Part shown: positions 7,301 through 14,748 of the stretch, piece by piece | Position numbering within the stretch: position 1 is the first letter of the stretch | Layout: every line of letters begins with the position of its first letter | IMG/VR virus record: IMGVR_UViG_3300013132_000026 | Location: 63,127 to 127,126 of that record | Length of the DNA stretch: 64,000 nucleotides | Direction: 5' to 3' (one strand) | Origin: a virus | Notes under the pieces: generated by a model | The model's database searches: none | Told to the model about the DNA's origin: nothing | The model's input: only the letters and a program-made list of their open reading frames with translations | Program-made: the position numbers and the translations under genes

Positions 7301-10020
7301 AGAGCCGCTAAATAACCGAAAGAAGTTGAAACTGCCGAGACATCTTTGCCGATCTTCTGAACTTCTGTTGGAGCATAGGCCGCGAGTTCAGAAGGAGTTG
7401 CTGCATTATTTGCAACAGCTGCATTGTTAGACACAATGATAACAACGTTGCCCGCAGTGCTCGCGGTTATATGCGCAGCCGCAGTAGCTAACGAGGACGA
7501 CGTTGACGTTTGATTCACAAATGCTCCAGCAGTAGTTAACTGGATCGCAGTGAAAAATCCATTAGCTGCCGCTGTCCCAACTTGTGACCCATTGACCGTC
7601 ACGGTTCCGTTCGTGCCGTCAACAGCACAAGACCAATTTGTTTCGTCGCCGATTAATTGTCCCGTTCCCGCCGAGCCTTGAACGTCAATATCAATTTCAT
7701 TTTCGAGCAACACACCAGAAACCGCTGCGAAGTTTAATGTTTCAAAACGAGGATTTCCCGTTACAGTCGTGTTGTCTGGGAAAACATAAACCTCTCCTGT
7801 CAAAATAGTATCGCCAGTTGTTACGCCACCACCAGAAATTCTTCCTTCGATTGGGTACGTTTCAAAGATGCCAGATTTGAGCAAGAACTCGCCAGTGATT
7901 GTGATTCTCGATCCGTAAGTGTTACTACCGTCAACACCGTCAGCTACCGTATGAATGTTGTATCTCTGTAATTGACGCTGGCGTCTCGCTCTAATATTGT
8001 TGAGCGTGCCAGTAAATTGACCAGCAGAACCAGTTAAGTTATTAAGATCCGATACCGAATAATTCCCAGAAGGGACGTGGATATAAATACCCGAGTCAAG
8101 TCCGATAGTCGATGCAGTTCCTTGCTTAAACTCGCCATCGATAGTGACGACATTAGTCGCTTCGTTAACATCTAAGATGCGCCCAAATGTTCTTGCAGTG
8201 TTCTTAACTTCGTCGCTGACCGAGAAGATATCGCCCGGTTGCAGGAACGCAGCCTCAACGCCGCCAACGAACGACACGATGTCAGACTCGAACATCGAAG
8301 AACACAAGACGTAGCGTCCAATTCTGCGAGCCTCTGAGCGTGAAGTGCAACCAGCAGCGTTGATTTTAAATGGATTTAAGCCGAACTTACGAATGCCGTC
8401 AACATCTTCAATATACTCTACCTTGGTTTTGTAACCATCATACTTATCGTTATAAACGACTTCTACGGAAGTATATCTGACGTTTCGCGCCGTTTCGCTA
8501 TACTCGAAAAGACCGTCTCGAACATTTGCATTCGAGAACTGCATAACAGGATCTTGTGGTCTATCGGCGTAAAAAGAGAAACCTTCCGTGTTCCAGTAAA
8601 CGATGCCCTTAAATACGGCTGAGACATCGCGCAATACATTGTAAGCCTCGTCTTTATTGTAGAAGATGATGTTGTATGTGTAGCGTGGCTCTAAGCCACC
8701 TTTGCCGTCTGGAACGCCTCGAAAAATACCCTTATCATCTACAGCGTCACAATACCTACCGATATCGTAAAGCGTCCACTTGTCGAGTGACGAAAAGTCG
8801 ATTTGGTTGCCCAAACCATAATTCGTATTCGTGATGATATCGTAAAGAACCCAAGCTGGATTATCGGTCCAGCCTAACTTGAACGTGCCATCCCAATCAC
8901 CGTAGTAAACCTTGTTGCTATCGTAAAACTTATCGTCACAGAACTGCTGAAAATCGATATCAGAGTCGTGGAGCATATTGAACGCACCACCATTTACTTT
9001 TGCCGAAAGTTCTCGGAATGTTCTAGTTCCAGAAGACGAAGCGTTGCTGTAGAAATAATAAAGCTGAACGCAGTTTTCAGTCGAGTATCTGAACAGAGCA
9101 TCGTAAGTCGATTCGGTCATCGACTCTGGACTTGCTCCTCCGAAGAAAACAACTTTTCTTACCGTGTTCGACCAAAGAGAGTCAACAACAACCGATTCAA
9201 GCTCTTTGCCCATTTCGCGATTCGATGCGTAGAGATTCTTTCTGATTAAATATGAAACTGCTCCGACTTCACTATAAGCGGCAGAGACGGTGCTTTCTTG
9301 CAGTAGCGTATCGAGCTTAGTAAAAAGATTTTGATTGTTTTCTCCAGCAGAATCTGGCGAGCGAACAGTTATGAACGATTCCGAATCGTAATATGAGAAG
9401 TTCGTTAGCGTTGGGCCATTGATGACGCTATAGCTGACGCTGCTATCCACTTTCCAAATTGCTGCCCTTACCGCAGTATAACCAGCGGTCATCTTCGCAA
9501 TCATTTCTTTTAAATTCCGACGAATCAAAGCCTTATTCGCAAATGTCATATTCTTGTCTACGACAAAAATAATATCTAGATTATTTGGATTAGCCGGATA
9601 GTTTGCGCTTGGGTAAACATAACGACGGTCAAGACCGTTTCCGCCCAATGGATAGTAATTGGACGGGATCTTAATCTTCTTCATTCGCACGTCGAATGCG
9701 CGTTCTGGAAAATTCGCAAAGGTTCGCGAATCAAACTTTACTCCAACGTGAGCTGTTAGCGGATAAGAGAAATTGCGATCAATAACTTCTGTGATACTAT
9801 CTACATAAACTTCGCGCCTAACGAGCGGAGAAATAGTTTCTTCGCTGCGCTTTTCAATCTTGATGTAGCGATCTTTGCCATTTACTGATTCTGGTAAAAC
9901 GATTTCATCAACTCCTTCAGATACATTCGTTGAATCAACTGACTTTTGAAAAGCCGTTTGGTTCGCGTCGATTGGATCTTCCGCTCCTCTTAAGAATCTA
10001 AATGGATTTAACATTTTCAT
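4315..10020 (-). CDS. tail tip / central fibre protein, lambda gpJ-like, C-terminal major part, with vWA-like and carbohydrate-binding insertions
   Basis: gpJ motifs: 'SITEVID..SYP.TA.VG..FDS', 'IPSNY', 'WDGTFK..WTDNPAW.LYD', 'LY.IG.YCD', 'EPRY', 'GCTSR.EARR.GR', 'LQPGD'. The gpJ N-terminal domain is missing. Confidence 0.88.
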   Translation of the reverse strand: MKMLNPFRFLRGAEDPIDANQTAFQKSVDSTNVSEGVDEIVLPESVNGKDRYIKIEKRSEETISPLVRREVYVDSITEVIDRNFSYPLTAHVGVKFDSRTFANFPERAFDVRMKKIKIPSNYYPLGGNGLDRRYVYPSANYPANPNNLDIIFVVDKNMTFANKALIRRNLKEMIAKMTAGYTAVRAAIWKVDSSVSYSVINGPTLTNFSYYDSESFITVRSPDSAGENNQNLFTKLDTLLQESTVSAAYSEVGAVSYLIRKNLYASNREMGKELESVVVDSLWSNTVRKVVFFGGASPESMTESTYDALFRYSTENCVQLYYFYSNASSSGTRTFRELSAKVNGGAFNMLHDSDIDFQQFCDDKFYDSNKVYYGDWDGTFKLGWTDNPAWVLYDIITNTNYGLGNQIDFSSLDKWTLYDIGRYCDAVDDKGIFRGVPDGKGGLEPRYTYNIIFYNKDEAYNVLRDVSAVFKGIVYWNTEGFSFYADRPQDPVMQFSNANVRDGLFEYSETARNVRYTSVEVVYNDKYDGYKTKVEYIEDVDGIRKFGLNPFKINAAGCTSRSEARRIGRYVLCSSMFESDIVSFVGGVEAAFLQPGDIFSVSDEVKNTARTFGRILDVNEATNVVTIDGEFKQGTASTIGLDSGIYIHVPSGNYSVSDLNNLTGSAGQFTGTLNNIRARRQRQLQRYNIHTVADGVDGSNTYGSRITITGEFLLKSGIFETYPIEGRISGGGVTTGDTILTGEVYVFPDNTTVTGNPRFETLNFAAVSGVLLENEIDIDVQGSAGTGQLIGDETNWSCAVDGTNGTVTVNGSQVGTAAANGFFTAIQLTTAGAFVNQTSTSSSLATAAAHITASTAGNVVIIVSNNAAVANNAATPSELAAYAPTEVQKIGKDVSAVSTSFGYLAALVKVSSGAGRIVERASKSLNDFGKIRFNYRDLLALSKMTPYYTFLNVDVGNSSNSKYDDWRASVYYDIDKIVNVSGVIYRCKAGHTSSATFATDETKYWIAGTINDHRTIGFPKDFYGSTKIPITTSLTSAHVSGAFAALGLSVYVGGGTLGQSDIRTLSETDGVGYSGLVYGTGYGKGFYSLAVDTLPTKINLIEDGSIYLLSGSGVEPKLYKTLTVKEEEANNYSVAGVEFYPDKENFIENDISDTSPNLYVQSPYDLVVKPQAPTTPVTTTLRKDESNVTTGIYVNWGASPSSPPLYKLYISRPDYSSSVPGAITEAVSTSSLDYTIPVNSNWGQYDIDIYAQGATPYRFLSEDSASISAVALPLSTATIGGTSLDRVAITGFYLDTADTGSLRYNITYGATFSGVGQGNFTSKDLTFRWSYVDPVGDRINSPDSLRNNPFFPDAPNIVVQLYSDGGTLLESNTGYQGFSYTLTKEKNQEYSMRGTTADIKTTDSPAQRNYRLRVVVRDVNNNPFTGTFDAYNVAPAYSQIDVVDSYQFSPYYVFSGYYGNSSFTRVAVWNSGENNIVSGSGIRDWSAGASAGDLLRSENADREITFRDISGAFKSATGLSSAGVATLNGIDINYSGLGDPSYEAYVNEWPDLLNAYESEVLQGGTKTKDAWGREHWETYGYEEARTLPRTKGNILGTADFADITNANQTGFSGVAVSVVQDRVSYNAIKFYCYSASSNKDVLSVDIYTGSSEAFTPDTDTRSNLHAIYPIPSRSYLNLIELGGPTIQREQWYYFKFLPRDDFGTGVMSPVVSGYLEDRADEPPAVTYTEYILDGKRPPAPVNAAERPQIEATGSNLMVNRSYKITVQGTVNWTTIGAKSGLAGVVFVYNGQTITGSGGYVVLESTIDLTLSPDDLNDTKIVTPISDSTVEIPSNPPIGYTVTFVNKPAFGKAADVYVVYRDGGEAAESPTLTVVKPNEQVVLEFTPKGWVDLNADTLYLDT

Positions 10021-10036
10021 CTACTAGTAAATATTA

Positions 10037-14393: not shown

Positions 14394-14748
14394 AACGTTT
14401 CTTTAACATATCAACGTATTCTTTCTTAACGTGCGATACCTTGGGCATCACCAAGTTGAATTCTTGAGTCTGCTTGCTGTAAATAAGATAAGGAATGCAA
14501 GAATTGTCGCAATTGAACTGGTCGAACTTCGACTCGTCTTCGCCCGTCTTTGGGTGCGAGTGATAGATCGCAACAAGATTACCCGAACGAATCTTCTTCA
14601 AGATTTCGAGCGGATGAATCTCAAATATATTATCGGCGTAAGTGGCAATGTTCTTCGCTGGCTCAGTTTTCAGTTCGCCGTTCTCAACGGTTACGAATCC
14701 GCAAACTTCCAAATCGGACGATAAAGCGTGTTCAACGATTGTAGTCAT
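14386..14748 (-). CDS. JAB/MPN metalloprotease, gpK-like, lacking the NlpC/P60 domain
   Basis: 'EVCGFV', 'YHSHP', 'ES..D' JAMM motif. Lies between gpL and gpI. Confidence 0.88.
   Translation of the reverse strand: MTTIVEHALSSDLEVCGFVTVENGELKTEPAKNIATYADNIFEIHPLEILKKIRSGNLVAIYHSHPKTGEDESKFDQFNCDNSCIPYLIYSKQTQEFNLVMPKVSHVKKEYVDMLKKRYD

Follow-up and report, generated by a model that had tools for sequence, protein, structure and literature searches.

In the stretch of phage DNA described here, the gene for the central tail fibre protein J is divided into two genes with a third between them, and both J pieces begin with a similar 12-codon leader. The stretch, hereafter the window, spans 64,000 nucleotides (nt) of IMG/VR virus record IMGVR_UViG_3300013132_000026 (positions 63,127 to 127,126). 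The source is an uncultured lake-water phage and the region of interest is a lambda-type tail-tip operon. This encodes gpL, a gpK-like protein with a JAB domain only, gpI with a ubiquitin-like (Ubl) domain, and J. We conclude, with high confidence, that an ancestral single J gene split in a surface loop, which is 11 residues long in an unsplit relative. We are equally sure that the gene for a small immunoglobulin (Ig)-like protein sits between the J halves, and there is little room for doubt that this three-gene layout is fixed across the whole clade. We also propose, tentatively, that the leader is a tag for the JAB protease.

Six tail-tip genes lie on the minus strand, in the order L-K-I-J and all in one direction. 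The same order is found in relatives. The N-terminal fragment of J, hereafter J-N, is encoded at 11425..10583 (280 amino acids, aa). It matches the N-terminal parts of phrog_1727 and phrog_31, has the N-terminal EGPIEG box of J, and its ATG is 1 nt past the gpI stop codon. The middle gene (10570..10037, 177 aa) follows. The remainder of J, hereafter J-rest, is at 10020..4315 (1901 aa) and comprises the hub domains and distal fibre (PF13550 at residues 457-613; phrog_31 with an E-value of 4e-112). A sequence-only reading of the window had given positions for J-N and J-rest, with a 177-aa gene between them and the JAB and gpI genes next to them. All are where it placed them, on the minus strand, and the two J pieces are indeed separate open reading frames (ORFs).

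Relatives of J-N occur on 59 viral contigs, at 46-93% identity. Note that counts over 60 sources refer to these 59 loci plus the window. All 52 sources extending 650 nt or more past J-N have the middle gene, and 49 of the 50 extending 1100 nt or more have a separate J-rest start. In the remaining one, L024, the middle region is longer and the sequence stops too early. By word-index search, 146 stand-alone J-N homologues of 154-490 aa were also found. Contigs from three other studies (X3, X5, and X7) run through from the J-rest leader, across the middle gene, to the end of J-N. These have strain-level differences, and no joint skipping the middle gene was seen among them.

Superficially, a J gene broken by a short ORF, with the repeat at each edge, is the picture expected of an assembly or sequencing error. 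It would also fit an intron, intein or homing element, spliced out to leave one J. However, the recurrence of the layout in related contigs, and in three other studies without such joints, argues strongly against both. Furthermore, the repeat is at two gene starts, not at insertion boundaries. The middle protein is conserved along its full length in an alignment of relatives and is predicted by AlphaFold2 (AF2) to form two N-terminal helices and an Ig-like beta-sandwich, with a mean predicted local distance difference test (pLDDT) score of 85.3. The intervening DNA gave no Rfam match, and hence no intron, at E up to 1, and the intervening gene gave no Pfam match to a Hint/intein or homing-endonuclease domain. 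A split intein was considered separately and rejected; there was no Hint match and, by eye, no terminal His-Asn plus Cys/Ser/Thr. We regard error or mobile insertion as having a negligible chance of being correct. As far as sequence data can show, the split, which the sequence-only reading had allowed might be an assembly error or a spliced gene, is neither.

The middle protein matches nothing in Pfam or PHROG. Foldseek comparisons returned generic Fn3/Ig-like sandwiches only, with E about 3e-4 and template modelling (TM) scores about 0.35. Could the protein be a detached domain of J? A hidden Markov model (HMM) of the family matched nothing at E up to 0.01 among 271 proteins plus the ORFs of loci L064-L146, and we rejected this idea. 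The product is a conserved, putative structural protein.

The position of the split can be read from P0131, an unsplit homologue of 1405 aa, which is collinear with both halves. Residues 28-235 of P0131 correspond to J-N 20-226, residues 247-354 correspond to J-rest 40-148 and residues 355-651 to J-rest 371-672. Just 11 residues of P0131 lie between the parts matching J-N and J-rest. Hence, the fission falls in this short stretch. Compared to P0131, the split version has three additions: a 54-residue tail on J-N, 39 residues at the start of J-rest (the leader and its acidic linker), and J-rest 149-370. A clade-specific insertion of ~245 aa, at about residues 125-369 of J-rest (8914..9648, minus strand), is missing from P0131 and from solved J proteins. 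Pfam, searched up to an E-value of 1, had nothing similar to it.

In an alignment with a solved J-like fibre, J-rest 21-124 pairs with residues 155-258, which puts the break near lambda residue 165-170. In lambda J, the available text of PMC10721106 describes an Ig-like insert, at 72-215, of the HDII-insertion domain. The break site probably lies inside this insert and would be a cut in mid-domain, as the sequence-only reading had it. That part of the claim is supported indirectly, by the mapping; the AF2 model of J-N, made from an 18-row alignment, has a mean pLDDT of 41. Separately, four J-N homologues (P0121-P0124, 512-518 aa) have a C-terminal Laminin_G_3 (LamG) domain (PF13385). Hence, the free C-terminal end made by fission can take adhesion-type modules.

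The J-N leader occupies 11390..11425 on the minus strand (MKILNPLRFFRG, then Met). A 35-nt degenerate pattern describing it has exactly two matches in the window and none in 100 shuffles. In the whole 127-kb virus record, the same two sites are the only matches. As the sequence-only reading supposed, the leader is conserved in homologues. It heads J-N in all 59 sources holding the 5' end and K2, I3, L4, N5, R8, F9, and G12 are invariant among 25 distinct leader DNAs. It is also among the best-kept stretches of 18 diverse J-N proteins (mean column identity 52%). Residues after G12 are mostly Ala, Gly or Ser, then Gly or Lys, and a Gly/Lys/Pro-rich linker always comes next. In the window, the J-N junction is Gly then Met-Gly. 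The likeness to the gpI Ubl junction, pointed out previously, is real to this extent: both have an invariant Gly followed by small residues. Note that Met13 of J-N aligns with Met1 of lambda J (tblastn, with the match starting at residue 12). The leader is therefore an extension beyond the lambda N-terminus.

Public annotation misses the leader in some J-N homologues. Briefly, gene calls for P0001 and P0004 open at the second Met (MGTSEAK..), equivalent to Met13, and the leader codons lie upstream in L007 (L007:8001). A different kind of match was seen in another lake sample. There, a 24.5-kb contig (X7 record 27) matches only the 35 nt of the J-N leader (window 11391-11425), with 4 differences, and diverges on both sides. 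This is apparently the J start of another phage; similar loose ends were seen in X5 and X7.

Codon usage separates selection on the peptide from selection on the DNA. In J-N leaders, Leu4 is encoded by five different codons, Gly12 by four, and Ile3, Asn5, and Phe9 by two each, although Arg8 is always AGA. Since residues are fixed while synonymous codons change, the leader appears to be selected as a peptide. We consider it nearly certain, from this comparison, that the peptide and not the DNA is what selection maintains. The converse explanation is that the 36 nt are an AT-rich translation-initiation region, in a host that does not use Shine-Dalgarno sequences, and were copied to boost translation of J-rest. 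The peptide would then be irrelevant. Consistent with this, the three genes lack an upstream Shine-Dalgarno-like sequence, the leader DNA begins with ATGAAA and is rich in A and T, and the Arg8 codon is constant. However, the synonymous variation makes a role at the nucleic acid level unlikely, and other observations point the same way. At locus L022, the two leaders are identical in protein and all 5 of their 5 nt differences are synonymous. The MKH-type leaders described below keep the length and terminal Gly using other codons, and the element gave no Rfam match. We consider this explanation very improbable.

The leader extends far beyond the split clade. A search of 1.8 billion representatives, with a J-N profile, gave 515 matches and the figures that follow are from the best 150 of 515. 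The N-terminus was intact in 139. Leaders of the MK[HI] type head 73 of these, for the most part unsplit J proteins, 1200-3000 aa long, that begin M-K/N-H-x-x-K-K-x-x-hydrophobic-x-G. A further 29 of the 139 have another short basic leader, ending hydrophobic-x-Gly-small. No regular-expression motif was found in the other 37, though several carry a leader by eye. A few homologues begin exactly at the Gly-rich stretch, as lambda J does. In split and MKH-type groups alike, the leader is 12 residues long and ends with Gly, usually then [AGS][GK]. In 64 distinct combinations, Pro never follows the leader Gly. We conclude, with little hesitation, that the leader predates the fission. Most J proteins in a large related group open with an N-terminal element of this kind, and the leader is the form that it takes in this clade.

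Two points from this comparison do not support the sequence-only reading. First, the leader is not special to the split, given the homologous leaders on most unsplit J proteins of the related group. Second, a stand-alone JAB protein is not peculiar to the split. This was apparent from 82 MKH-type loci, in which the operon is again L, JAB-only K, Ubl-gpI, J. Note that these loci were fetched with a leader-bearing query and that leader presence among them is partly by construction. In 69 of the 71 leader-bearing loci with enough upstream DNA, an ORF encoding the JAMM motif lies upstream; hence, the stand-alone JAB is the norm in the unsplit group. Contig ends or tandem J genes account for the two loci that have no JAMM motif. 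Tandem J paralogues are likely at L132:38-6197 and L134:97-4239, where a J-like ORF is directly upstream of the leader-bearing J and the short upstream stretch has no JAB. A further observation concerns position 3. His3 is invariant in 18 aligned MKH-type leaders, and the window leader has Ile3. A free N-terminus with His at position 3 matches the amino-terminal Cu/Ni-binding motif.

Cultured phages with either type of leader were not found by blastn of the region, which matched no phage record, or by tblastn of J-N, P0149, and the first 70 residues of P0149. With J-N, tblastn returned lambda-like matches only, starting at residue 11-12. With P0149, all of the 25 records listed, from 1781, match residues 544-1091 only; the first 70 residues alone gave no match at E up to 0.01. 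The related-locus search found no relatives of P0133 and only two distant loci for P0149. A scan of genome contigs with an alignment gave 3 loci on contigs of metagenome-assembled genomes, too few to point to a host.

J-rest carries a second leader (9985..10020, minus strand; MKMLNPFRFLRG, then Ala, with an acidic linker after). The sequence-only reading described the two leader DNAs, for MKILNPLRFFRG and MKMLNPFRFLRG, as similar and this is confirmed; 30 of 36 nt are shared. Flanking DNA is at chance level, with 10/30 identities upstream and 5/24 downstream. The J-rest junction is Gly then Ala-Glu, and the J-rest leader of one strain variant has I at position 3. The leader is found on no more than 10 of the 49 J-rest starts, or 6 of the 27 distinct sequences. 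The remaining 39 (21 of the distinct sequences) are leaderless and start with an acidic Asp/Asn/Gly/Pro-rich stretch, the same short distance past the middle-gene stop codon. Hence, the claim that each J piece needs a leader is not supported. On J-rest, the leader is useful but dispensable.

We built a tree from 600 core residues of J-rest, using 44 rows that reduce to 27 after removal of 17 exact duplicates. The six leader-bearing rows fall in three well-supported places, requiring a minimum of three changes, and none of 200 bootstrap trees allows a single change. The tree is effectively unrooted and so does not tell gains of the J-rest leader from losses. With that qualification, we are confident that the copy on J-rest is an optional, secondary acquisition in three lineages. 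The L022 locus is informative. Here, the J-rest leader sits on a linker resembling those of leaderless neighbours. Taken with the synonymous differences noted above, this points to an in-place copy that has probably been kept by selection. At ORF starts of the window, the 59 loci and the 127-kb record, no other leader was found.

The JAB gene (14748..14386, minus strand) encodes a stand-alone JAB/MPN+ protein of 120 aa that resembles gpK. It scores 28.7 bits against Prok-JAB (PF14464), where the Pfam cut-off is 25, and also matches phrog_30 and phrog_2635. The JAMM motif, E..HxH..S..D, is complete and E14, H63, H65, S73, and D76 are invariant in 22 aligned homologues. Comparison with lambda gpK, using hhalign, gave a weak match over the HSHP..S..D stretch (55%, E 1.2e-4). 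Unlike lambda gpK, which has JAB and NlpC/P60 domains, the protein is JAB only: Pfam matched no NlpC/P60 domain. JAB-only proteins, of 128-136 aa, are also the rule in relatives.

The gpI-like protein (14393..11427, minus strand; 988 aa) matches phrog_32 over residues 1-195, with E 1.1e-35. Its N-terminus aligns with residues 14-116 of lambda gpI (hhalign 95.4%, E 1.8e-8). The Ubl domain (residues 1-85; 14139..14393, minus strand) ends VPVVWG then AG. H78, P81, W84, G85, A86, and G87 are invariant in an alignment of 14 sequences and this end is the counterpart of IHIVPRVAGA in lambda gpI. Across gpI Ubl domains, the final invariant Gly is followed by Ala-Gly or Ser-Gly. By eye, no covariation was seen between this residue pair and the junction of the leader. 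A hydrophobic linker, TAPI-C and an extension of ~790 aa complete the protein; the beta-grasp fold of the Ubl is a prediction. The resemblance to the lambda gpK/gpI pair (TAPK/TAPI) thus covers gene order, an intact JAMM motif, and a gpI with Ubl, terminal Gly, linker and TAPI-C. The ~790 extra aa at the C-terminus set it apart from lambda gpI. Hence, a stand-alone, intact JAB beside a Ubl-type gpI, as described in the sequence-only reading, is borne out by Pfam, the JAMM residues and the alignment to lambda gpI.

That reading also foresaw a tag-and-cleave pathway. For gpI, such a pathway has precedent. Iyer, Burroughs and Aravind (2006, PMC1779556) predicted that JAB cuts the Ubl of gpI at its final Gly, and also described fusions of I to J. 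A 2025 meeting report (PMC12908700) states in summary that lambda gpK cleaves the gpI Ubl, and does so only once gpI has joined other tip proteins.

What, then, might the leader on J do? We propose that it mimics, in minimal form, the last strand and C-terminal Gly of a ubiquitin-like tag. The JAB protein that strips the gpI Ubl would also recognise the leader and clip J after Gly12. Clipping would leave a Gly/Ala-rich N-terminus, equal to the native start of lambda J, and J would thereby enter the tip in gated order. Copying the tag to J-rest would put the new polypeptide under the same handling, without being required. Several observations favour such a tag. The gpI Ubl and the leader both end in Gly then small residues, lambda J and some homologues start at the first residue after the leader, and no Pro follows the Gly in the combinations counted above. 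Of the 71 loci with a leader, 69 have an ORF with the JAMM motif upstream, and the removal of the gpI Ubl is reported to depend on gpK in lambda (PMC12908700, meeting summary).

A further argument comes from P0133 and P0160, which carry a putative Ubl-like element at the leader's position on J. In each case, a gpI-like N-terminal element of 53 residues ends VPLISG (P0133) or VPASSG (P0160), just before the Gly-rich J linker. Thus, at one position, J carries nothing, a short leader, or a putative Ubl-like element, and the latter two end with Gly before a Gly-rich linker.

Many points weigh against the leader being a cleavage tag. The elements of P0133 and P0160 are the best non-trivial matches of a Ubl HMM among 146 N-termini, but with E-values of 0.01 and 0.095, respectively, they are no more than candidate Ubls. 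The first 70 residues of P0133, compared with the gpI Ubl alignment by hhalign, matched over 16 columns with a probability of 2.2%. At 12 residues, the leader is far short of a beta-grasp (about 55-90 residues), and the known JAMM proteases also grip the Ubl body. Furthermore, the sequence of the leader (NPxRFxRG) does not reproduce the end of the phage's own Ubl (VPVVWG). The J-rest junction is without a second Gly and the window J-N junction interposes Met. Nor does the presence of JAB discriminate: JAB always occurs with Ubl-gpI, and lambda has JAB but no leader. The 82 MKH-type loci, obtained with a leader-bearing query, have the leader partly by construction. Structure prediction of a complex between JAB, J-N residues 1-45 and Zn scored 0.01, against a mark of 0.32, which speaks neither for binding nor against it. 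Finally, the whole leader is kept at its exact length, which is more than a cleavage site would need.

This last property is what a retained docking peptide would predict. The uncleaved leader could be a short strand or hairpin, on a flexible tether, that plugs into a tip partner by beta-sheet augmentation. The partner might be the C-domain of gpL, gpI, the middle protein or a neighbouring J, and the J-rest copy would be a second anchor. Conservation of the full 12-mer, rather than the junction alone, fits well, and a leader with a low-complexity linker is the usual layout of tethered peptides. Precedents exist in lambda, where, according to the available text of PMC10721106, gpI strands augment gpJ beta-sheets and gpJ's N-terminal part completes a domain with gpL. 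In addition, the J halves must complement each other across the split Ig-like domain. Conversely, lambda and several homologues start exactly past the leader and work without it, as does J-rest in 39 of 49 sources. The partner is putative and the AF2 model of J-N is too poor to show docking. We consider docking rather unlikely, on balance, but it is the main rival to cleavage.

Alternatively, the leader might touch the cell. A basic, aromatic peptide, carried on a flexible arm where the tip is hypervariable and closest to the cell, could bind anionic envelope components during adsorption, with J-rest copies raising avidity. Leaders are basic and amphipathic across very different sequences (for example, MKILNPYRFYRG, MKHLLKKISIAG, and MNHLSRKKKLYG) and the region gathers adhesion-type modules, namely the Ig-like middle protein and the LamG domain fused to J-N in P0121-P0124. 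The available text of PMC13243795 names the junction a focus of hypervariability near the cell wall, and an optional J-rest leader suits an accessory role. However, invariant Asn5, Phe9, and Gly12, together with fixed length, suggest a specific protein partner over generic charge, and external placement of the leader on the tip is an assumption. Such a contact role seems improbable.

We return to the JAB tag. Of the explanations considered, we favour the one in which JAB recognises the leader as a minimal tag and cleaves there. This is a serious possibility that we would nonetheless not bet on, and JAB cleavage of J is offered as a proposal. The fuller version is possible but doubtful. In this, the leader would be a portable tag, consisting of the Ubl tail only, for the stand-alone phage JAB. 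JAB would then act on two classes of substrate, the leader and the gpI Ubl. The leader would control when the central fibre enters the tail tip, and would have been re-used on a polypeptide born by fission. Any link from the leader to host defences that conjugate Ubl proteins, as raised in the sequence-only reading, is pure speculation; the conjugation site on the fibre is not defined in the available text of bioRxiv 10.1101/2023.09.04.556158.

Comparison with known systems places these features. Like lambda gpJ (PDB 8IYK) and the F2-pyocin J-like fibre, the split protein has the EGPIEG box, the hub domains and the Phage-tail_3 domain. Unlike lambda gpJ, it has one more fission, inside the N-terminal insertion domain, an Ig-like gene between the halves, the ~245-aa insertion in J-rest, and the leader. 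The candidate second substrate, compared to lambda, is a 12-residue leader on J and not a Ubl domain; lambda J has no leader. Proteins in which a Ubl or the whole of gpI is fused to J are also similar, having a Gly-ended tag in the leader's position, a Gly-rich linker and the J body. Examples are P0270, the putative cases P0133 and P0160, and the I-J fusions mentioned in the available text of PMC1779556. These differ in that the tag here has 12 residues, is not a beta-grasp, does not copy the phage's own Ubl tail and, in some lineages, is also on the second J half.

Ubiquitin itself provides another parallel. Its C-terminal tail, LRLRGG, is the element bound in the cleft of JAMM/MPN+ deubiquitinases. 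Many leaders similarly end with hydrophobic-Arg/Lys-Gly, then Gly or Ala (..LRG then G, ..IRG then AG, ..RFxRG then A). Unlike ubiquitin, leaders have no Ubl body and a single Gly, not Gly-Gly, before the junction, and their cleavage is hypothetical.

Some of this was already known. The Ubl/JAB pair, like the sharing of hub domains among several polypeptides, is described in the available text of PMC1779556 and PMC10721106. The latter notes that hubs are spread over differing numbers of polypeptides; T5 pb3 equates to lambda gpL, gpI and the N-part of gpJ, and RcGTA uses gp13/gp15. As far as our literature search goes, the extra J fission, with an intervening Ig-like gene fixed in the clade, is new. 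The same applies to the family-wide, Gly-terminated leader of 12 residues on J, and to the copy of it on the second fragment. A search of main texts turned up no description of a leader or propeptide at the N-terminus of J-type proteins; S2 Table of PMC10721106 may hold detail on mass spectrometry of lambda virions.

The fission is a natural experiment, in which a protein was split within a domain, an intervening gene was gained, and an N-terminal tag was copied onto the new fragment in some lineages. The checkpoint at which the gpI Ubl is removed has so far been described only in a meeting summary. In a large phage group, the conserved, Gly-terminated J leader may be a further substrate at this checkpoint. 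If so, no smaller substrate tag of a JAMM protease would be known, and tail assembly in a large group of uncultured aquatic phages would include a widespread processing step that is unannotated. If cleavage is real, a tag of 12 residues and a protease of 120 residues would also make a compact tag-and-protease pair.

Other features of the region should be mentioned. The gene for gpL, a minor tail protein, is at 15728..14748 on the minus strand (326 aa; PF05100 Phage_tail_L, E 2e-54; phrog_18). The gpI extension (window 11427-13805, residues ~196-988) has only a weak match to CBM_5_12 (E 0.0028). The C-terminal part of lambda gpI lies within the tip lumen, which is why so long an extension looks odd. 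In the window's clade gpI has 830-1030 aa, versus 190-240 aa in MKH-type relatives. Some MKH-type phages have two or three tandem gpI-like genes, encoding 433-499 aa, between the JAB gene and J (L065:2957-5885, L120:2262-6504, and L125:2743-6985). Each of these opens with a Ubl-type N-terminus. A mini-ORF of 16 codons, in frame with J, is contained in the lambda I-J spacer (L147:2046-2105, 60 nt). Its last residues are ..VIYGA; then come a stop codon, a single Gly codon and the start of J. The mini-ORF may have arisen by chance from the ribosome-binding site, or may be what is left of a leader. Finally, two plus-strand ORFs at window positions 958-4318, of 766 and 363 aa, run towards the end of J-rest, and the second, by eye, resembles the small subunit of ribonucleotide reductase.

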